A program made the position numbers and the translations under genes. Below, piece by piece: positions 3,986 to 39,370 of a stretch of 64,000 bases of DNA. The stretch comes from Mobula hypostoma (taxonomy: Eukaryota), in the NCBI RefSeq assembly GCF_963921235.1, contig NC_086097.1, positions 172,424,001 through 172,488,000 of the forward strand. The letters are read 5' to 3'. Position 1 is the first letter of the stretch. Each line of letters begins with the position of its first letter. The notes under the pieces were generated by a model, which saw only the letters and a program-made list of their open reading frames with translations, searched no databases and had not been told where the DNA came from.

Positions 3986-6788
3986 CAGTGTTCTGGACTC
4001 AATACTGAATTCAGGTAATTCACTTTCTTTATGTCAGAACTGGCCAGCTCTGTTATAGATTTTCCTTCTGCAATATTAAGCTGGTCTCTCTCTCTCCCCA
4101 TGGACACTGTCAGGTATTACAAACTCCAGATGAAGTGGAACCACTGTGTGCCATTTTCGTGCTTGTATCAATCAAATCTTCTAGTGATAGTGATAGTGAA
4201 AGACCAACATCAAATTTGCCTTTCTCTTTGCTGGCTGTATCTGCTTATTAGCTCTTAGTGACTTTTGTAAAAGCACAACCAGATTCCTTTGAATATCAGG
4301 TATCTCGTCACTTAAAAAACATATAGCTTTTCTGTTTAACCAATCAAAGTGAATAATCTCCTTGGGGCCATTTTTGGTCTCCTCAGCTAAATAATTTTTT
4401 TCAAGCTGAAACACTCACTCCTTGTCTCTCTTCACAGATGCTGCCTGACCTAATGTGCATTTCCACCATTTTTCATCTACGTTTCAGTTTGCTATTGATT
4501 TTCTAACTTACATTGTACTCCATCTGCTTAAGACTGCAAAACACTATAGAGTTGTGAACACAGCCCAATCTATCATGGAGAGTAGCCTCCCCTCTGTGGA
4601 CTCTGTCTATATTTCTCACTGCCTCTGTAAAGCAGCTAACATATTCAAAGACCTCACCCACTGTGGTCTTTCTCCTTCTAACCCATCCTATCAGGCAGAA
4701 GATACAAAAGCTCGAAGCAAGTGCCAGTGGGCTCAGGTACAGCTTCTACTGACAGATTATTGAACTGACTTCTAATATGAACTCCTGATCTCCCAGTCTA
4801 CCTTGTCAAGGGGTTTGCACTGTTTCTCTGTCTGCACAGTACTTTCCTTGTCATTATAATCCTATCTTCTGCATTCTGTTGTTTTTTTTTCTCTCCTTTT
4901 GTACAACCTAGATCTACTTATGTATGAATGATCTATCTGAATGGCATGGAAACCAACCTTGGGGCATACAACAATAGTTACAGTCTGCCATGTTCTTGTC
5001 CACTTGTGCAGTTTGTCTAAATCTCTCCTTCTGATTACTCCTCACATTCTCATTGACATTTTATATCATTTGAAAATGACACAAACTTGTCAACAACAAA
5101 TTTGTAAATTCTACATTTGGACTCCTCAACCAAATCATTGAGACTGGTCGTATATACCTGGGGTCCAAGCACCAATCCCTGTGCCAGCCATCCCATTTGT
5201 TCCCACTCTTCTCTTTCTATCTGTCAACCAACTCTCAATCCATACTGGTACCTTACCATCAATTTTATGTAAGCTAACCTTGTTCACCAACATCGTGTGT
5301 GGACCGTATCAATAATATGGATACATCACATCCTTAAAGAACATTAGATTAGGCAAAAGTGATGTCCCTTTCACACATTCCTGTTGGATTTACTGCATCA
5401 TATTAATATTTTCTATGTGTTGCCATCTTTTATTTAAGATTCCACAACTTTTTTTCCCTGGTCCTAACAGCAGGCTAAAAGGTTGGAATTTCCCTGTTTC
5501 CTCTCACTTTATTTTTCTTTAATTTGTCCAGTCTCAAAGTTAAAGTTGAGTTTACTGTCACACACACAAGTAAGTATTTGCCCAACTTGCAGCAACATCA
5601 TGGGCTCAGAGCATCAGATAGACAAAGTCACAAAAAAAATAAATTAAATAGGCAAAATTTTTACAAGACAAAACACAGTTAGAACAAAAAAACCAACAAA
5701 GTTCAGTTTAGTGCTAAGCTATCAAAGTCATAGTAGCCATGGTGTTGCTATATTGAGATACAGATTGGGGTTTGCTGGCTTCACTAAGCAAATGGTTGAA
5801 AGAAGAAACTGTGCTGAACTTCAGGATTCTGTGCCTCCTTCCCAATGCGAGAAAAAGGGATGGACTCAATGGTGGGGATCTTTGATGATGGATGTTGCCT
5901 TGTTAAAGCAACACCTCTTGTGGATAGTAACAATGGTGGGGAGGATCTGTTCCTACATTTCTTTATCATTCCCTTTTTCTCTTTCACCTTCAGTATCACC
6001 ATCATCATCACACACTCCCTCTCTCTCTCTCTCTCTCTGACACATACATACACACGAAATTGCCAAACAGTTGATTTACTGTCAGTATCATATACTGTGA
6101 TTCAAACCCTAAGAATTGATTTAGTGCCTTCCTGTGGTAATGAGTATTGGACTTCCCTTCATGGAGAAATAACAAGCAGCTGGATTTGTGTATTTTGTGA
6201 AATGAATAATTTCTTCTGTGTGTCCCTCCTGTCAGTAAAATATAGATTCACACAGTTAGCTGCTATGTGTATAGATATTGCTTAAAGAGGTCTTCATTAT
6301 TTCCACGGCCCACTCATCCCTCTAAAATATTTCTGTTTCATGATCTTTGAGGGAAGTATCTATGAGCATTGCACCTCAGGTGATCCTAGGCAGGTACTAC
6401 AGTGCAGTGCTGACAAACTCCTCTTCTGTCGAGGCACCATCTTTCAGACGATAAGCTGAGGGCTTGTCTCAACTCAGCCAAATGTAAAAGATCCCCCAGA
6501 TGAGCCTTGAAAAAGAATGATCTGTTAATAATTGAATCCTGCCTAAATATTAAAATGTCACTCAAGATCATTAAGAATATCACCCACCCCTCCCCCTTTC
6601 TCCTGCATTTTTATAAATGACCTAGTGAGGAAGTGGAGGGATGGGTTAGTAAATTTGCTGATGACACGAAGGTTGGGGGTGTTGTGGATAGTGTGTAGGG
6701 CTGTTAGATGTCACAGCCGGACATCGATAGGATGCAAAACCAGGCTGAGAAGTGGCAGATGGAGTTCAACCCAGATAAATGTGATGTG

Positions 6789-7404
6789 ACCGCTTTGCTG
6801 AACATCTACGCTCTGTCCGCCAGAGAAAGCAGGATCTCCCAGTGGCCACACATTTTAATTCCACATCCCATTCCCATTCTGACATGTCTATCCACGGCCT
6901 CCTCTACTGTAAAGATGAAGCCACACTCAGGTTGGAGGAACAACACCTTATATTCCGTATGGGTAGCCTCCAACCTGATGGCATGAACATTGACTTCTCT
7001 AACTTCCGCTAGGCCCCACCTCCCCCTCGTACCCCATCTGTTACTCTTTTTTATGCACACATTCTTTCTCTCACTCTCCTTTTTCTCCCTCTGTCCCTCT
7101 GAATATACCTCTTGCCCATCCTCTGGGTCACCCCCCCCCGTCTTTCTTCCCGGACCTCCTGTCCCATGATCCTCTCGTATCCCCTTCTGCCTATCACCTG
7201 TCCAGCTCTCGGCTCCATCCCTCCCCCTCTTGTCTTCTCCTATCATTTTGCATCTCCCCCTCCCCCTCCAGCTTTCAAATCCCTTACTCACTCTTCCTTC
7301 AGTTAGTCCTGACGAAGGGTCTCGGCCTGAAACGTCGACTGCGCCTCTTCCTATAGATGCTGCCTGGCCTGCTGCGTTCACCAGCAACTTTGATGTGTGT
7401 TGCT
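6789..7404 (+). mobile_element. 5'-truncated Penelope-like element (GIY-YIG C-terminus plus pLTR) with 13-bp TSD
   Basis: Near-identical to ~30698-31317; encodes RFAEHLRSVRQRKQDLPVATHFN...LRLEEQHLIFR; TSD TAAATGTGATGTG at 6776-6788 and 7405-7417. Confidence 0.95.
7305..7340 (+). ncRNA. Minimal type-I hammerhead ribozyme
   Basis: AGTC-CTGACGA-AGG gtctcgg CCT-GAAAC-GTC-GACT: helix I AGTC/GACT, conserved core, helix II, palindromic ACGT in place of helix III, GUC site at 7334-7336. Confidence 0.88.
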
Positions 7405-8619
7405 TAAATGTGATGTGGTTCATTTTGGTAGGTCAAATATGATGGCAGAGTATAGTATTAATGGTAAGGCTCTTGGCAGTGTGGAGGATCCGAGTCCATA
7501 GGACACTCAAAGCTGTTGTGGTTAAGAGGGCATATGGTGCATTTGCCTTCATCAACCGTGGATTGAGGTTAAGAGCCGAGAGGTAATGTTGCAGCTATAT
7601 AGTAACCTGGTCAGACCCCACTTGGAGTACTGTGCTCAGTTCTGGTCACCTCACCACAGGAAGGATGTGAAAACTATAGAAAGGGTGCAGAGGAGATTTA
7701 CAAGGATGTTGCCTGGATTGGGGAGCATGCCTTATGAGAACAGGTTGAGTGAACTTGGGCTTTTCTCCTTGGAGTGGCGAAAGATGAGAGATGACCTGAT
7801 AGAGGTATATAAGATGATGAGAGGCATTGATCGTGTAGATAGTCAGAAGCTTTTCCCCAGGGCTGAAATGGCTAACATGAGTGAGCACAGTTTTAAGGTG
7901 CTTGGAAGTAGGTACAGAGGAGATGTCAGGGGTTAAGTTTTTTATGCGGAGAGTAGTGAGTGCGTGGAATGGGCTGCCGGCGACAGTGGTGGAGGCGAAT
8001 ATGATAGGGTCTTTTAAGAGACTCCTGGATAGGTACATGGAGCTTAGAAAAATCGAGGGCAATGGGTAACCTTAGGTAATTTCTAAAGTAAGTACATGTT
8101 CGGCACACCATTGTGGGCTGAGGGGCCTGTATTGTGCTGTAGGTTTTCTATGTTTCTATGTTTCTAAGTGGAGGAAGTGCAACACTTAGTCAGAGAGTCA
8201 CAGAGCACTACAGCACAGGAACAGGGCCTTCAGTCCATCTAGTCTATGCTGATCTGGTTTTCTGCCTAGTCCCATCTACTTGCACCTGGATTATAGCCCT
8301 TCATACCTTTCTCACCTATGTACCTATCTAAACCTCTCATAAGTGTTACAATTAAACCTGCATCTGCCATTTCCACTGACAACTCATTCCACATGTTGAG
8401 TGAAGAAGTTTCCCCTCTGGTTCCAGTTTAACCCTAAGCCAAACGCAGGAGAGAAAAACTGCATGCATTTACCCTATCTATGCCCCTCATAACTTTGTAT
8501 CTCTAAAAGATCTCCCCTTATTCTTGTGCACTCCAGGAAGTAAAATCCTAACCTACTGTTTTCAACCTTTTCCTGTGACTCAGATCCTCATACTGTTTAT
8601 ACAGATTGAACACTCCACA

Positions 8620-15439: not shown

Positions 15440-16025
15440 GAAAAGTGCTGGAGAAATGAAATGGGTCAGGCAGCATCAGTGGAGGGAAATGGACAGTCGA
15501 TGTGATGGGTTGAGACCTCTCACCTGGATTGTAAGAAGGAGGAGAGGTAGCCAGTACAAATAGGTGGGAGGGTGGTGTAGAATAAGAGGTGGATCCAGGA
15601 GAGGGTGCGATAGGCAGATGAGAGAGTGGGATGAGTGGGGATGGTATCACAAGTTAGAGCTGGATGGCGGAATTGACAAAGGGATGACGATTATGGAATC
15701 TGATTAGAGAGGAAGGGAGAGCATAGAAAATAGGGAGGAAGTTGGGGAGGGGAATCAGTGAGGTGAGAATTCAAATGAGGAATGTTGGGTGATGGGCAGA
15801 TGGAGAGGATGAGGAAGTAGAAAGACGAAATGAGATGGGAGTCACTGGTATCAGGGGAGCGAGAAGAAAAAATGGGGCAAAGGGAGCAACATACACATAA
15901 TGCTGGAGGAACAGACAGACGACTGCATATTCCCCTCCTTAGATGCTGCTTGATTTGCTGAGTTTCTCCAGTATTTTGTGTGTTGCTCTAAATTTCCAGC
16001 ATCTGCAGAATCTCTTGTGTTTAGA
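15440..16025. mobile_element. Old Penelope pLTR-derived inverted elements
   Basis: GGTCAGGCAGCATCAGTGGAGGGAAATGGACAGTCGA (inverse pLTR) and AGATGCTGCTTGATTTGCTGAGTTTCTCCAG...TTTCCAGCATCTGCAGAA (forward pLTR end). Confidence 0.65.
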
Positions 16026-27442: not shown

Positions 27443-27991
27443 TCTTGTCAGTTTTCATATTGTAAATCTCAGGCTACTCAGTCTGTCATTTCAATTATCA
27501 GACTCTTCATCAACAGCATACAGATTAGTGTCTTTTTGAAGCTCCATCTTGACTTTTTAAAATCTTTTTCACTTCCCTGGACATTCCATTATTTCTGTCG
27601 GCCGACATGCTCTATAATATGTATCCTACTTCACCACATTTTCTGCAAGTTTTTCTCCTTTAACCCTGCATTGGTCTGGAGTGTGTGAGCTCTGCCATAA
27701 CGGTAACACAATCTGTTTGGTCTGGAAGGTTTCTGTTTAGACATTACAATTTTGTTCACGTTGACTTTCATTCCTGACTGCGACTCCCTTGTGTCTCTGG
27801 CTGCTGTTTCCATTGATACAACAATTTCACCTGTTCTTTTAATTACAAGTTGTGCTTAAGATAGGAGCCACTTTGTAAGATTTCACAAACTAAACTATCT
27901 TTCAGTGCATTATCAAGCTCATCACTGAGCTGACGATACTTAGACAATTTCTTCAATTCAGCCACGTAAGCTGAAATGGCCTTCCTTATCC

Positions 27992-30921
27992 CAGACCCTT
28001 CCACACCTTCGGGACACTTTCTTCGCCGTCTGTAATGGTCCTACCCGTTATTTCATCCTCCGTCGGATTCACGCCTGCAATCGCCGTTTTTTTGACTTTG
28101 TCATGTTAGGCAAAGATCGCAAGATCCTACATCTACGGACTCCAGAGCCTGCCGGCCCCGACGCTAGCAGGCATGAACTTCAAATTGCGGCCCCTGCCAT
28201 TGATCTCGGCGGCTCCAACACCTCAGGACATATTCAAAACCCGGACTCCAGCAATGACCATGGACACATTCGAAGTGATTGCGCAACCACCAACTGCGAC
28301 TCCAGCCTTGAACTCCAGGCCGGGTCTTTATGTGCTGCTATTGTGACTCCCGTCTCCCCTTCCCCCACCAATACTCTGCAATCCCGTCTCCTTCAGATCC
28401 CATCGTCAGCTCCTGGGTCCTCAGAGGCTCCATCTTCCTCTCAGCCCAACCATCTGCTCTCCACTGACACCCCCAGCCTCCCCCCTCCCGCCTCTGATCC
28501 CAGCTCTCAAAATTCCAGCCTTGAACTCCAGGCCGGGTCTTTATGTGCTGCTGTTGTGACTCCCGTCTCCCCTTCCCCCACCAATACTCTGCAATCCCGT
28601 CTCCTTCAGATCCCATCGTCAGCTCCTGGGTACTCAGAGGCTCCATCTTCCTCTCACCCCAACCCTCCCCTCTCCATTGACACCCCCAGCCTCCCCCCTC
28701 CCCGCTCTGATCCCAGCTCTCATCCGTGCCGGGTCTTTACCATCCCCTCCGACCTTCAACTGTCGGAGGCAGAACGCTCTGTCCTCGGTAAGGGCCTCAC
28801 GTTTGTCCCCCTTCGCCCACACCTCAGCGAGTTCCGTGTTCGCCACGATGCGGAACTTTTCTTCCGCCGTCTCCGTCTCCGAGCCTACTTCTTCGGCAAG
28901 GACTCTTCCACCCCCACCGATGACCCCTTCTCCCGTCTTCAACCCTCCTCTTCTTCATGGACACAGCGCTCTGGTCTTCTGCCTGCTCTGGATCTCTTTA
29001 TTGCTAACTGCCGACGGGACATCAACCGTCTCGACTTCACCGCACCTTGTTCCTATTCCAACCTCACTCCTTCGGAACGCTCTGCTCTCCACTCCCTCCG
29101 CACTAATCCTAACCTTATTATTAAACCCGCTGATAAGGGAGGTGCTGTTGTAGTCTGGCGTACTGACCTCTACCTTGCCGAGGCGCAGCGACAACTCGCG
29201 GATACCTCCTCTTATTTACCCCTCGATCGTGACCCCAATAAGGAGCACCAGGCCATTGTCTCCCACACCATCACCGACTTTATCCGCTCAGGGGATCTCC
29301 CATCCACTGCTACCAACCTTATAGTTCCCACACCCCGCACTTCCCGTTTCTACCTCCTACCCAAGATCCACAAACCTGCCTGTCCTGGCAGACCTATTGT
29401 CTCAGCTTGCTCCTGCCCCACCGAACTCATTTCTGCATACCTCGACACTGTATTATCACCCCTTGTTCAATCCCTTCCGACCTATGTTCGTGACACTTCT
29501 CACGCTCTTAAACTTTTCGATGATTTTAAGTTCCCTGGCCCCCACCGCTTTATTTTCACCATGGATGTCCAGTCCTTATATACTTCCATCCCCCATCAGG
29601 AAGGTCTCAAAGCTCTACGCTTCTTTTTGGATTCCAGACCTAATCAGTTCCCCTCTACCACCACTCTGCTCCGTCTAGCGGAATTAGTCCTTACTCTTAA
29701 TAATTTCTCCTTTTGCTCCTCCCATTTCCTCCAAACTAAAGGTGTAGCTATGGGCACCCGTATGGGTTCTAGCTATGCCTGCCTTTTTGTTGGGTTTGTG
29801 GAACAATCTATGTTCCGTGCCTATTCTGGTATCTGTCCCCCACTTTTCCTTCGCTACATCGATGACTGCATTGGCGCTGCTTCCTGCACGTATGCAGAAC
29901 TCGTTGACTTTATTAACTTTGCCTCCAACTTTCACCCTGCCCTCAAGTTTACCTGGTCCATTTCCGACACCTCCCTCCCCTTTCTAGATCTTTCTGTCTC
30001 TGTCTCTGGAGACAGCTTATCCACTGATGTCTACTATAAGCCTACTGACTCTCACAGCTATCTGGACTATTCCTCTTCTCACCCTGTCTCTTGCAAAAAC
30101 GCCATCCCCTTCTCGCAATTCCTCCGTCTCCGCCGCATCTGCTCTCAGGATGAGGCTTTTCATCCTAGGACAAGGGAGATGTCTTCCTTTTTTAAAGAAA
30201 GGGGCTTCCTTCCTCCACTATCAACTCTGCTCTTAAACGCATCTCCCCCATTTCACGTACATCTGCTCTCACTCCATCCTCCCACCACCCCACTAGGAAT
30301 AGGGTTCCCCTGGTCCTCACCTACCACCCCACCAGCCTCCGGGTCCAACATATTATTCTCCGTAACTTCCGCCACCTCCAAAGGGATCCCACCACTAAGC
30401 ACATCTTTCCCTCCCCCCCTCTCTCTGCATTCCGCAGGGATCGCTCCCTACACAACTCCCTTGTCCATTCGTCCCCCCCATCCCTCCCCACTGATCTCCC
30501 TCCTGGCACTTATCCGTGTAAGCGGAACAAGTGCTACACATGCCCTTACACTTCCTCCCTTACCACCATTCAGGGCCCCAAACAGTCCTTCCAGGTGAGG
30601 CATCACTTCACCTGTGAGTCGACTGGGGTGATATACTGTGTCCGGTGCTCCCGATGTGGCCTTTTATATATTGGTGAGACCCGACGCAGACTGGGAGACC
30701 GCTTTGCTGAACATCTACGCTCTGTCCGCCAGAGAAAGCAGGATCTCCCAGTAGCCACACATTTTAATTCCACATCCCATTCCCATTCTGACATGTCTAT
30801 CCACGGCCTCCTCCACTGTAAAGATGAAGCCACACTCAGGTTGGAGGAACAACACCTTATATTCCGTCTGGGTAGCCTCCAACCTGATGGCATGAACATC
30901 GACTTCTCTAACTTCCGCTAA
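27992..30921 (+). pseudogene. Penelope polyprotein (RT, Cys-rich linker, GIY-YIG endonuclease) with one 1-bp frameshift at ~30208
   Basis: KGLTFVP, KPADKGGAVV, YLLPKIHK..GRPIVS, MDVQSLYTSI, GVAMG, RYIDD; after the shift CKRNKCYTC and VIYCVRCSRCGLLYIGET; frame is open back to the insertion junction. Confidence 0.93.
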
Positions 30922-31216
30922 GGCCCCACCTCCCCCTCGTACCCCATCTGTTACTCATTTTTATGCACACATTCTTTCTCTCACTCTACTTTTTCTCCCT
31001 CTGTCCCTCTGAATATACCTCTTGCCCATCCTCTGGGTCACCCCCCCCCTTGTCTTTCTTCCCGGACCTCCTGTCCCATGATCCTCTCTTATCCCCTTTT
31101 GCCTATCACCTGTCCAGCTCTCGGCTCTATCCCTCCCCCTCCTGTCTTCTCCTATCATTTTGCATCTCCCCCTCCCCCTCCAACTTTCAAATCCCTTACT
31201 CACTCTTCCTTCAGTT

Positions 31217-31252
31217 AGTCCTGACGAAGGGTCTCGGCCTGAAACGTCGACT
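31217..31252 (+). ncRNA. Minimal type-I hammerhead ribozyme in the Penelope pLTR
   Basis: AGTCCTGACGAAGGGTCTCGGCCTGAAACGTCGACT; GUC at 31246-31248. Confidence 0.88.
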
Positions 31253-33257
31253 GCACCTCTTCCTATAGATGCTGCTTGGCCTGCTGCGTTCACCAGCAAC
31301 TTTGATGTATGTTGCTTGAATTTCCAGCATCTGCAGAATTCCTGTTGTTTTCCTTATCTTTTGATTCCTCTGATGAAACCTAAAGCATTCTGCAATCAAC
31401 AGTGGTTTTGGTTCTAAATGTTCCTGCATTATGTCCACAATATCAGAAATGTTCATTTTAGCTGGTTTGATTGGAACAATTAAACTTCTAAGCAAGCTGT
31501 ATGCTTTTCCACCAATTGCACTCTGCAACACTGGCACATGTTTTTTTTTATTGGCTATTTCATTTGCCTCAAATACTGATCAATTTGTTCTGTATACATC
31601 ATCCAGTTATCTGTCTGTCTATCTTTTCAACATAACCAGCCATTTCTGCTTTTTTAAAATTCATTATTATTATCACCCAGTACTCGCTGTTTATGAACCC
31701 ATGGCTGTACTCCGTTACCTTCTCACCAGAACTTGTATTCAAACTTGGCTCTCTAGCTAACTCTGCTATAGGCCATGTAACTCGGTGGTGAGAAGGCCAC
31801 CTTTCATAAACAATATGCGTCTAGTGTCAGTATGGTTGGGGGTTCAACCAAATAGGAATGTCATGATGTTCTGATTAAAGGAACCTCGATTGGAGAGAAT
31901 GCTATGTAAATACTACCTATACAGAATTATTTGTCAGCAAGAAAAAACAGATTGTACACCACATAAAATTATTAAAAAAAAGTATATTTACCAATTTCAG
32001 CTTTATCAAACAGTTAATAGGAAAAATAAAAAAGAAGAAAAGAAAAGGACCCATTACAGTTACACCGGTCCAATTTGGACATAATGTTGGAGCTCACACT
32101 GGAGCCATTGGGAGTGTATCCCCTTACTCACTGGCTGGACCCACAGTCTGTGTGAAAGCACTCATCATATTCTGAAGTTCCCTCAAAGTCCATCTCGAAC
32201 AAACTGGTTCTCTCTCTGGAGTACTAGCCCTTCCTCCTTGGAGCCATTCATCTGCACAATGCACTTCTTGCAATGGGGACGCTCCCTCCAATGGCACTCT
32301 GTGGCATCTTCCCTTGTGGCCCATTCCACAGCTTCCGCCAAAAGACCCCAAACCAGACTACTGTCCATCACAAATCACTCTCTACCCAGCGTTCTCTAGA
32401 AACTTCTCCTGATCCCATCATCCTAAGTGGCTGAAACAGCATTCCTAAGTTGAACAACAGGGCTTCTTATCTTTACCCGAAAAAAAACCTATTCTACCAG
32501 CAGGACACTTTGCTTTTACAGAAAACTGCTAAAATGAAATAGCTACAGCATAGCAGTAGTAATCTCATTACAACTTGTTGCTTGCTAACTTCATTCGTTT
32601 CCTGCCTTTTTTTACTCGAATATCTCTACCCTAATGAGGAAAAACATGCTGTGCACTTTTTTGACTCGAAGGTCTCACTTCCTTTCCTATAAAAAATGTA
32701 CCACACTTTTTAAACTCAAATATCTTTCTCTCTCTCTAGCTCCTGCTGAAGAAAAATGGCTGCAATTCAACAGGTAGGTAGTCATCACAGGTTCATTTTA
32801 AAACTTCCTCAGTGCCACTGTTATGTTTCTAACTCCAGAAAATAATTAAAATAAAACCACACAGACCAGGGATGTGTCTATTTAGTTTTTCTTCTTTGAT
32901 GAGGTGCACACATATGACCTAGTGGCATAATGACATATGCCATTCATATACTTCTAATATATAACTCATAATGGATTATGTAAACAAACTGAATGCTTAA
33001 TTAGTCAATATATTTACAATATTACTCAAATTTTAAATGCGCCACATTTGAGTAGGCTAAGACTTCATTATTTAAAGTGCAGGAGTCTGAGGGATATCTT
33101 CATAGACCAATATAAGATCAAAGGGAGCATAGAAAGGGTAAATGCACACAGTCTTTTTCCCAAAGAAAGCAAATCAAAAACTTAGGGATGTAAGGTGAGA
33201 GGGGAAAGATTTAAAAGGGACAGAGGGTGGTTGTGCATATGGAATAAACTGCCAGAG

Positions 33258-34848: not shown

Positions 34849-35487
34849 GGAAGTGGTTGAGGTGAGTACAGTAACAATACTTAAAGAGAGTTAGGCAGGT
34901 ATATGTATAAGAAAGGATTAGAGGGATATGGGCAGAAATAGGCAAATGACACTATGTATCTTGCTCAGCATGGACACCTTGGGCCAAAGTGCCTGTTGTT
35001 GTGCTCTATTACACCATGAGTCTTTAACTCGGTGAAGGTGATGGTGTGGTAATATATTTAAAAATCAAGATGGTAACTGCATTGAAGGGCAACTTCCATG
35101 ACATTGTTACTTAAATAGGGGTCTATTACTATATACCATACTTGGGTGTGATCTTACTCATGCTTTGTACAATGTGGTAAGATCTTACTCCCTTGTGCAT
35201 AAATGTACTTGTGCATCCGAAATTCAACTCAACTTTGACTTTCCTGTAAATAATAGAGTCAGCATTTCAGGCTGGAGATCCTTCATCAGAACCATGTACT
35301 ATTAACAGATGGGAGATTAACTCTGATGACATAATTGATAATTACCTCTCCAATTTCCTCCCATATTCCAAACACCTATGTAAGAATGCAAACAACAGGA
35401 ATTCTGCAGATGCTGGAAATTCAAGCAACACACATCAAAGTTGCTGGTGAACGCAGCAGGCCAGGCAGCATCTCTAGGAAGAGGTAC

Positions 35488-35523
35488 AGTCGACGTTTCA
35501 GGCCGAGACCCTTCGTCAGGACT
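35488..35523 (-). ncRNA. Minimal type-I hammerhead ribozyme
   Basis: Exact reverse complement of the 36-nt motif at 7305 and 31217. Confidence 0.88.
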
Positions 35524-35754
35524 AACTGAAGGAAGAGTTAGTAAGAGATTTGAAAGTGGGAGGGGGAGGGGGAGATCCAAAATGATAGGAGAAGACAGGG
35601 GGGGGGGGGGATGGATATATGGCTGTGATAGTGAGTCTGAGTCAAAATGTGGTCGAAAAGTTGAAGAGTCCTCCCCCTCCTGTCTTCTCCGATCATTTTG
35701 GATCTCCCCCTCCCCCTCCTACTTTCAAATCTCTTACTCACTCTTCCTTCCGTT

Positions 35755-35790
35755 AGTCCTGACGAAGGGTCTCGGCCTGAAACGTCGACT
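35755..35790 (+). ncRNA. Minimal type-I hammerhead ribozyme
   Basis: Identical 36-nt motif. Confidence 0.88.
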
Positions 35791-37934
35791 GTACCTCTTC
35801 CTAGAGATGCTGCCTGGCCTGCTGCGTTCACCAGCAACTTTGATATGTGTTAACTATGTAAGAAGTAAGGTTTAGTAAGTTGTGGGCATGCTATGTTGGC
35901 ACAGGAAGCACAGTGACACTTGCAGGGTGTCCCCAGTACATCCTCGGACAGTGTTGGCCATTGATGAAAGCAACGCATTTCACTGCATGTTTCAATGTAC
36001 TGTGATAAATAAGGCTTGATTTATTATTGTCCCTTCTACTGAGGTAGCATGGAAAGCTTTGCTTTCTGTGCAATGCAGGGAGATGATTCCAAACATAGAT
36101 ATATCAAGGTAGGTAGGACAAATGGAAAAGCAATAACAAAATATAGAATATAGTGTTACACTTACAGAGAAAGTGCAGTTAGATTTTTCGTGTGAATGTG
36201 TGAAACTGATGCTCAGTGCTTGTGATACAGCTGCATACAAGTTTTTCATTGCATCAGTGCATGCATGTTCTTCTGCTTTTTTTCAGTTTGTTTTCAGTTT
36301 GTTAACCAGTAGTCTGGTCCTACCAACATGTGGACATCAGCTCTTATTTTGTTTGTGTAACCTTTTGAGTGACACTTTGCTGAATGCCTTGTGAAAGTCC
36401 AAATATATTACATTCACTTTAGTTGATAAATCTCAAAGAATTTTAACAGGTTTGTCAGAAATCATTTCCCCTTCATGAAGCCAGCCATTTGAGAGTACTA
36501 AGGAGGCTTCGATAAAAGTCTCCAACCTGAAGCATTAACTCCATTCCTCTCTCCACAGTTACTGACTGACATGCAGAGTATTTGTTGATTAAAAGAGGAA
36601 CATTAATCTCGTCTCCAGGGCTGTGAGGAGAAGCAAAAACAGAAACCCCATCACAATTAAGTAAGAGAGAACAGTATGTCAGTTTTATGTCCAGAGAAGA
36701 TGGGGGAAGGGATGGACAGAACAAAGAGAGCAAGAAAATAAAATTGCTGGAGGAACTCAGTGGGTCAGTTGGCATCTGTGGTTGGAAATAGATGGTCAGC
36801 ATTTTGGATCTAAATCCTTCATCTGGACATAGGGAGCATCTGGGAAAGACTGAGGCCAAGGTTACTGTGGGAATAAATTTCTAGCAGTGTTTTCCATTAT
36901 TAAGTGAGCAACTGAGCAGTGAAGTGAACTCTGGAGATACCAACCAATAGAATGTTAAATGATAGTTCAAGAAAAGGGTACTGCATAGTCAAGTCTCAGA
37001 AACAGACAGAGGGAACACACCAGAAACTGACATTTTGAGTCCTGCTTTTGGACCGTTAGATCTGTGAAACAGAGAAAATAAGCAGGGCCTTAAAGAGTGT
37101 TGTAGAACAGAGGGATCTAGAAGTACAAGTACTTAGATCCCTGAAGGTGGTGTCATTGGTAGACATGTGACAGTGGTAGCTTTTGGCACACTGGCCCTCA
37201 TCAGCAAAGCCATTGAGTTTAGGAGGCAGTACGCTATGTTGCAGTGTCACAAGACGCTAGTGAGGAAACATTTGAAATATTGTGTAGTTTGGTCATTCTA
37301 TTTTTGCAAAAGGTCATTAAGCTGGAAAGAGTGCCGAGAAGATTTGAGAGAAGTGATGGATTTCAATGTTTAATTCCAAGGTTAGTTTAGAAGTCAGAAA
37401 CAAGACATAAAACTTGTTGCTTCATGATCATTTTATTAAGAGTTGATAGAACAAAGAAAACCGGAACAGGAGAGTGACAAGGGGAAGAAGAGCAGTTCTA
37501 AAAAAAGATGGCACCTAGCACAAAGCAGCTACTTTGTTGCCATTGAGATAAGATAAATTCCATTCTAATCTACAGATAATAACAATCTAATTAGAAAATA
37601 ATGATTTAGTACTGCAGTAAAAACTAACCAAAGAGAAAATACTAGCTGCTTAATGCGGAGCTTCCAGAGCATTTCAGAATTATACTTTGTACAGCCAATA
37701 GAGGCATATTCAATTGTTAGGCATATAAATTCTACCCAAAATACAAGCAGATAATTAAATTGTTAATTGTTAAATTATGAGGGGCATGGATAAGATAAAT
37801 GCAACTCGGCTTTTTCCACTGAAGTTGGGGAGATCAGAACTAGAGATCATAGATTAAGGGTGAAAGGTGAAATATTTAAATGAAACCTGAGAGTGAATTT
37901 CTTCACTTAGAGGGTGGTGTGAGCATAAAGGAAA

Positions 37935-39370
37935 AGGTTCAAAGGTTCCAAGGTTCATTTTACTTTCATGTACAATACAGCTCTGAAATTTGTCTTCTCC
38001 AGATAATCATGAAATACAGAAAAACCATGGGAGTCATTGAAATAAAAGACATCAACCCCCCTCCTCCCTGCATGAAAAAGAAAACAAAACAAAACTCGCA
38101 ACCCCCAAAACCCCCCACCCCCTTCCTCGCTAAAAATCAGCAACAATAATATCAAAATCCCAACCCCACCCCTTGCAAAAAAGAACAGCAACAATGACAT
38201 CAGACACCCAACCCCCCCTCACAAAAACTAACAGACTGCCCATACAGAAAAGCCAACAAGAACATGGATACCAAGTCCCCAACCCCCTCTCACACACAAA
38301 AACTAACAGACTGCCCATACAGAAAAGCCAACAAGAACATCAGATACCAAGTCCCCAACCCCCTCTCTCTCACACACAAACTAACAGACTGCCCATACAG
38401 AAAAGCCAACAAGAACATCGGATACCAAGTCCCCAAACCCCTCTCTCTCACACAAAAACTAACAGACTGCCCATACAGAAAAGCCAACAAGAACATCAGA
38501 CCCCAAACACCCAACCCCTTCCTCCACACAAAAACTAACAGACTGCCCATACAGAAAAGCCAACAAGAACATCGGATACCAATTCCCCAACCCCCTCCCT
38601 CACACACAAAACTAACAGACTGCCCATACAGAAAAGCCAGTAAGAACATCGGACCCCAAACACCCAACCCCCCCTCTCTCACACACAAAAACTAACAGAC
38701 TGCCCATACAGAAAAGCCAACAAGAACATCGGACCCCAAACACCCAACTCCTTCCTCCACACAAAAACGAACATATCGCTCACCCAGAACCCTAAACCAT
38801 CAGCAACAGGAAAGAAAACGCAAAAACCTGAAGGAGACCAATATAAGCTAGTCTAATAATCACATAAATCTTACAATTTTGAAAACATCCACCCATCAGA
38901 ATAAAGGAGAGCAGCTGTTTGAACTCAGTCATTGTGTGAAGAGGGACCGCCACACCAGCATGCTGCTGTCCTGAGGCCTTCTGAACGCCGCTGACCCAGC
39001 TATCAACCGCCATCAACACATGGCCTCCATGGAAGAGCCACCACTGACCTCCTCCATATTCACCTCAATGCTTCAATCTTCCCTGACAATTCAAAATGGA
39101 GTAAATCATGACCTCACAACCTGGTACATGTACATGACCTGGTCTTCTGCACAGAGCAGCTTGTGCTCACAGTCCTCTCTGGGGACAACAGAATACTCAA
39201 TAGTTTGATTGAACTCCAAACTGTACGTCACAGGCTCCAACAGTTTCTGAAATACAATCAAGACAAAAAGAACAAGCAGAAGGCATAGAAAAAGTGAAAT
39301 AAATGAAGAGATTGGCTATCTGAAAGATTTCACCCAAGGAATCGTTGTTCACTGGCACCATCTTGACTGG
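37935..39370 (-). mobile_element. Non-coding LINE-derived element inserted in a CR1 3' remnant
   Basis: Minus-strand 5' end CCAGTCAAGATGGTGCC (YY1-like LINE start) and (TGAACCTT)n-like tail; CR1 3' sequence on both flanks (37770-37930 and 39370-39550). Confidence 0.55.
38200..38770. repeat. Minisatellite, 7 copies of a 75-80-bp unit
   Basis: ACTAACAGACTGCCCATACAGAAAAGCCA at 38227, 38302, 38380, 38458, 38534, 38611, 38691. Confidence 0.95.

Follow-up and report, generated by a model that had tools for sequence, protein, structure and literature searches.

The typical insertion of an endonuclease-bearing Penelope-like element (PLE) has been described as an inverted 5'-truncated copy with a tail of 30-40 bp at one end (Craig et al., 2021; PMC8557442). 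In rotifers, Pen2a_Av is a further example of such a unit, and internally deleted PLE copies are found between inverted repeats, as in a Pen2 derivative (Arkhipova et al., 2013; PMC3846280), the account of which combines the inverted repeats and the internal deletion with a 10-bp duplication (PMC3846280). For PAc (Poseidon of Anolis carolinensis), the purified protein was reported to nick and extend both target strands (Frangieh et al., 2024; PMC11167929), and reverse transcription to start at two internal sites 30-40 nt apart, a spacing that corresponds to the tail (PMC11167929). The minimal hammerhead motif of PLEs was described as not cleaving when single and as cleaving at a low level when dimeric (Cervera and De la Pena, 2014; PMC4209133), and dual minimal hammerheads, 100-700 bp apart and on opposite strands, were described in Schistosoma (PMC4209133). 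Generation of siRNAs from inverted Penelope copies has already been reported in Drosophila (PMC3681739).

The 465-bp palindrome analyzed here lies in a 64,000-nt stretch of Mobula hypostoma DNA (the window, to which all coordinates refer), and is a head-to-head insertion of two 5'-truncated PLE 3' ends within one target-site duplication. We hold the identity of its parts with high confidence. The unit is a dead copy of a very abundant retroelement in an already published head-to-head layout, and itself carries only a short fragment of a PLE ORF.

Architecture of the insertion and related copies in the window

The two inverted arms (35427-35608 and 35670-35851) are 96% complementary over 182 nt, with 175 of the 182 bases paired and seven differences. 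All hammerhead core bases are kept in both, in agreement with the original prediction of two near-identical arms that point outward and carry intact hammerheads. The left arm (35387-35615, minus strand) is a 5'-truncated PLE 3' end that comprises terminal repeat and tail, as identified by DNA comparison within the window (95% to 31131-31350 and 93% to 7214-7409). Its tail of 37-40 nt (35387-35426, minus strand) matches 31314-31350 and represents the common outer end of the family. The PLE terminus of this arm lies at 35390, or at 35387 when the three bases beside the duplication are included, and in public contigs the loose ends of the family are commonest at 35388-35390. The right arm (35670-35851, plus strand), recognized from complementarity and window similarity, is an inverted 5'-truncated terminal repeat without tail, which ends 37 nt before the equivalent of left-arm position 35390. 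As had been noted from the sequence, the arms therefore end at different terminal-repeat positions. The left one alone has a tail, and no mirrored counterpart exists for the outer 37-40 nt of the unit. The inner ends of the two arms, in terms of element position, are no more than about 5 nt apart.

Of 18 common family polymorphisms, 2 distinguish the arms, versus 5.6 expected for random copies (a rough figure, as the sites are linked), which points to one source lineage for both arms. One arm-to-arm difference (35539/35739) is a common family variant and hints at two templates. The left arm contains a run of 13 G residues at 35598-35610, in place of the interrupted purine tract of the right arm and the other copies; this run could be slippage or a sequencing artefact.

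The unit is bounded by CTATGTAAGAA, an 11-bp target-site duplication that is exact and present on the plus strand at 35376-35386 on the left and at 35854-35864 on the right. An 11-mer was shared by chance in 13 of 200,000 random flank draws, which supports the duplication that had been predicted. When read as 13 bp with one mismatch (35374-35386 and 35852-35864), it directly abuts the right arm, and a duplication of 13 bp is also present at the family copy around 7 kb. Comparison of the reconstructed empty site with repeats in the window gave short matches to the left flank alone and none spanning the site, and no empty site was seen in the public contigs of four runs, those of organism D being without flank cover. 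A contig of run X5 (organism B) crosses the flank-arm boundary and covers 28 nt of the arm, with no loose end and 9 differences over 355 nt; this contig and one of run X1, which extends 23 nt past the left junction, both stay below the 31-letter bridging rule. These sequences indicate that the left junction is probably common to organism B and that the insertion would be older than the split from organism B, an age with which the seven arm-to-arm differences are consistent.

The target itself (flanks at 35340-35376 and 35865-36020) looks like a decayed short interspersed repeat, presumably a SINE, the left flank of which has short matches at 2009, 50309 and 51915 and a raised contig depth. Approximately 90 bp to the left of the insertion, on the minus strand at 35250-35300, lies a decayed hammerhead-like PLE remnant, which is repeated sequence in runs X1, X5 and X10.

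A related 5'-truncated PLE occupies 27944-31350 (plus strand). From domain and homolog matches, it encodes a reverse transcriptase and a GIY-YIG endonuclease with a CX4CxxC linker, and is frameshifted. Within 27944-30921, RVT_1 is matched at E=6.8e-4 (below the curated cut-off) and GIY-YIG at E=7.6e-5, and 2,397 homologs are found at E<=1e-20, the best named of which is 74% identical and derives from the shark Chiloscyllium punctatum. A protein search with the low-complexity N-terminal part of this copy gave no matches. The linker is located in the 30196-30921 frame, before the GIY-YIG motif, and would fit a Neptune/Nematis-type PLE, as these elements are described with a CX2-5CxxC linker before this motif that is absent in Poseidon (PMC8557442). 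The copy had been taken for the parent of the unit; however, 10 of 182 sites distinguish it from either arm, and the two arms have four bases in common that are absent from both other window copies. Judged by these positions, the long copy is a member of the same PLE family from a different subfamily, and not the direct parent.

In the Ser/Pro-rich region upstream of the reverse transcriptase, the long copy contains a tandem duplication with a period of 213 bp (28301-28509 and 28514-28722, 96% identical) in which the frame is kept. A 9-mer is present on both sides of the copy (27982-27990 and 31351-31359), and weak protein similarity reaches about 30 nt upstream of the left 9-mer; this repeat may be microhomology rather than a clean duplication. 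A second related 5'-truncated copy, identified by window similarity at 6788-7409 (plus strand), has its 13-bp duplication and no inverted arm. It stops part-way into the tail, about 4 nt beyond the end point of the right arm, and appears to break up an older repeat element, presumably a LINE. Elsewhere in the window, an older PLE 3' end with tail (79% identical) is found at 15936-16022, and a tandem array with a period of 75-78 bp at 38130-38700.

Identity of the spacer

Between the arms lies a spacer of 54 nt (35616-35669), which has an open frame on the minus strand, the sense in which the left arm also lies. A spacer of about 58 bp at 35611-35668 had been proposed; the spacer is real, and its limits shift, since 35611-35615, which agree with the terminal repeat of the 7-kb copy, were assigned to the left arm. 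At the joint, a 3-nt word (TCC on the minus strand, 35613-35615) agrees with the terminal repeat and also continues the reading frame of the ORF fragment, the ORF side being derived from the protein motif, and we infer that this word is microhomology.

At the DNA level, nothing in the window matches the spacer significantly (best E=0.15), and the earlier observation that it is unmatched to the 28-31-kb copy holds. The best match, 15 of 16 nt in the reverse transcriptase region, was rejected as chance. The long copy begins around residue 94 of homolog P0004 and is truncated downstream of an N-terminal motif located at residues 28-44, which accounts for the missing match. It is this motif that the spacer resembles at the protein level. 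The peptide encoded on the minus strand (35669 to 35610) has its three best local matches among 120 PLE homologs in this one N-terminal motif, with 9 identities over 16-17 residues, and the approximately 18 codons of the spacer match residues 28-44 of P0004. A profile of the motif was made from 39 distinct homolog motifs, without inclusion of the spacer; its source was the 40 of 263 homologs in which the motif pattern occurs within the first 160 residues, and the remaining homologs were left out. The spacer scores 15.7 bits against this profile and ranks 1 among 49,938 stop-free 20-mers of the window (the next scores 3.7), and none of 20,000 base shuffles reached its score. The in-sample profile members score 37.5-57.9, well above the spacer. 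A tile control (0 of 3,045) was set aside, as its 21-nt step misses the spacer's own register. The spacer was not reported at E<=10 by a broad HMM of 69 homolog N-termini, and when longer proteins were searched with the frame of the spacer, 10 candidates came up, none of them at E<=10. The 20-nt spacer pattern was found in 0 viral loci, and one metagenome locus with this pattern (L001; 23 of 24 nt) was regarded as chance, as it shows no other similarity and no PLE protein match.

Public contigs of 4 of the 23 listed runs were compared over 35060-35705 (left flank, left arm, spacer and 36 nt of the right arm). In the bin wholly within the spacer (35632-35653), the summed contig depth is 41,749 in X1 versus 6.62 in the unique flank, and 14,594 in X5 versus 12.9; it amounts to 328 in X11 and 628 in X10, two runs in which the unique flank bins are uncovered (X11 is a presumed RNA run, for which the absent flank cover says nothing on expression). 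X1 is possibly the sample behind the window assembly and gives no independent support. The spacer is plainly repeated DNA in contigs from three species. Its depth is 0.05-0.31% of that of the arms (0.31% in X1), where summed contig depth is not equivalent to copy number and a junction in a deleted subfamily would likewise raise the spacer depth. Repetition at this level excludes a single-copy host donor, and is what the 5' part of a retroelement with mostly truncated copies would show. Among the 15 joints listed, with 87 more beyond the listing, at least two, both in X1, connect arm and spacer (35533 to 35622 and 35589 to 35633), at breakpoints that differ from that of the insertion; their shorter flanks measure 26-28 nt. 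Junctions of the terminal repeat with this ORF 5' stretch may exist at further loci, with breakpoints of their own, and no fixed junction family for the unit was found among the contig joints listed.

From the peptide motif and the repeated DNA, the spacer is most likely the 5' region of the element's own PLE ORF and not host DNA, an assignment made at the peptide level. The original prediction of a coding-free, foreign filler has to be abandoned, as the spacer reads as a PLE N-terminal motif and is repeated DNA. Before a sequence between PLE arms is called foreign filler, comparison with the full-length element is needed, as local copies are 5'-truncated.

Origin of the back-to-back unit

The route that we favor, and consider probable, is a template switch onto the 5' RNA of the element's own ORF during a single integration. 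The GIY-YIG endonuclease would have introduced staggered nicks 11-13 bp apart, and a first cDNA, with tail, would have been initiated at the outer start site of reverse transcription. After copying about 229 nt of terminal repeat, the enzyme would have switched at the 3-nt shared word to the ORF 5' part of the PLE RNA and continued for a further 54 nt. The second arm would derive either from priming of the other strand at the inner start site or from fold-back copying of the first cDNA, and as a last step the two cDNA ends would be joined. A second arm made as a fold-back copy would explain why the arms end within about 5 nt of each other, and this proximity of the inner ends favors a coupled process, either fold-back or hairpin-limited deletion. 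The idea that both target strands were primed and that the two cDNAs were joined through a foreign template survives in its first half, for priming on two strands is reasonable in the light of the PAc work (PMC11167929); its second half does not, the spacer being most likely the element's own ORF.

A later deletion would lead to an identical final sequence, and is the main rival of the template switch. An initially long insertion, consisting of the inverted arm and a near-full-length direct copy from near ORF codon 27, could have lost about 3 kb, later or during repair, by one microhomology-mediated deletion between the ORF fragment and the 3' terminal repeat, perhaps promoted by arm pairing. 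A single deletion would suffice, given that spacer and left arm are of one sense and that the spacer precedes the arm in element order; the breakpoint is at most about 5 nt from the end of arm pairing, and for rotifers a PLE copy is on record that combines inverted repeats and a 10-bp duplication with a microhomology-mediated internal deletion (PMC3846280). Nevertheless, we regard this course as unlikely, because near-full-length insertions look rare (as judged from the 0.31% spacer-to-arm depth in X1) and two uncommon events would be needed; there is no long allele in the contigs, which could not clearly have shown one. The spacer and left arm might also have been copied together from an internally deleted, non-autonomous source, or the whole unit might be a small mobile family. 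Such a history would suit a spacer that is repeated in three species, and non-autonomous PLE derivatives are known (PMC8557442), but it appears quite improbable in view of the two arm-to-spacer joints with other breakpoints among the 15 listed, of termini that correspond to PLE reverse-transcription ends and not to transposase-type inverted repeats, and of full-length elements that account for the repeated spacer signal.

Joining of the two cDNAs through a foreign template (host DNA or an unrelated repeat) we consider highly improbable: the spacer is the window's top match to the PLE N-terminal motif, shares the PLE sense of the left arm and occurs in more than one copy, even though it has no DNA match in the window, its protein match is short, and capture of unrelated DNA between solo terminal repeats has been published for rotifers (PMC3846280). 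Finally, it is hardly credible that two independent insertions surround original genomic DNA, or that the 11-mer was already present twice. No empty allele was recovered and no window repeat runs across the reconstructed empty site, as such a history would allow, but the duplication is present at both outer ends (13 of 200,000 in the random draws), the arms are of common source lineage, and the tail is found on one arm only, as in published single units.

With respect to the template switch, a broader claim, that jumps of the PLE reverse transcriptase from the terminal repeat to the ORF 5' RNA just downstream of the internal start sites are recurrent, is decidedly doubtful. In Anolis, the PLE protein depends on this stretch for its activity, and the two further X1 joints, with their short sides, are a hint of recurrence. 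If the claim is true, mini-palindromes with ORF-start spacers would be genomic footprints of the way in which the ribonucleoprotein holds its RNA and builds inverted arms. A literature search, with subscription papers largely outside its coverage, gave no report of a repeat-to-ORF-start switch in PLEs. The observation would gain weight if ORF-start spacers prove common, as the building of inverted arms and one-sided tails is still unresolved in the published accounts (PMC8557442; PMC11167929).

Hammerheads, read-through RNA and relation to known systems

Each arm contains a minimal type I hammerhead motif, located at 35488-35523 (minus strand) in the left arm and at 35755-35790 (plus strand) in the right arm. 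The core is intact in both, as well as in both other window copies, helix III is palindromic and without loop 3, and there is one motif per strand in the unit. No Rfam match at gathering score was obtained in the window. When one arm segment was folded alone no hammerhead fold was obtained (z=0.50), and helix probabilities in isolated arms are below 0.01, as expected of a dimer-type motif and no sign of decay.

Whichever way the unit is transcribed, the outward orientation of the arms places the antisense arm first. The predicted fold of the 465-nt RNA has an energy of -384.5 kcal/mol (z=-32.8), in line with the long hairpin that had been anticipated for transcription either way, and the predicted pairing probability of hammerhead helices I and II is 0 in both read-through folds. 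The hammerheads are predicted to be passengers that are inactive in a read-through transcript, and the outward orientation together with the zero helix pairing makes a ribozyme function for the unit unlikely. The read-through transcript, if made, would be a long double-stranded RNA, and by analogy the unit is a possible siRNA source.

The suggestion of a MITE-like ribozyme element finds no support, given a dimer-dependent ribozyme, the absent helix pairing in both directions and joints without a fixed family among those listed. The terminal inverted repeats of MITEs derive from a transposase-encoding element (PMC8969392). The arms of the unit derive instead from PLE 3' ends, with 37-40 nt at the outside that are unmirrored, which does not fit a MITE.

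In comparison with the minimal metazoan PLE hammerheads as described (PMC4209133), the motifs share the intact core, a short helix I and an extra base before helix II, as well as the palindromic 15.2-16.2 and the lack of loop 3. Unlike the usual minimal hammerheads, helix II is only 3 bp here, and G10.1-C11.1 reads as G-U in both arms. The dual motifs of Schistosoma are separated by 100-700 bp (PMC4209133), and those of the unit by about 230 bp, likewise on opposite strands; a second hammerhead on the same strand, for the active dimer fold, is absent from the unit. As in the inverted Penelope copies of Drosophila (PMC3681739), read-through RNA of our locus would form long double-stranded RNA.

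Among the features of an endonuclease-bearing PLE, the following are present: reverse transcriptase and GIY-YIG domains in the related copy, a hammerhead terminal repeat, 5' truncation, inversion and a tail at one end. As for PAc, two start sites would account for arms with and without tail (PMC11167929). In contrast to PAc, the family of the insertion has the CX4CxxC linker, and Poseidon is without this linker; the main text of the PAc paper reports no switch onto ORF 5' RNA (PMC11167929). The unit resembles the canonical PLE unit in its head-to-head truncated copies, its tail on one arm and its short target-site duplication, as described for other PLEs (PMC8557442; PMC3846280). It differs from that unit in its size of 465 bp, in inner ends that are at most about 5 nt apart, and in an internal piece of 54 nt that probably corresponds to the ORF 5' region.
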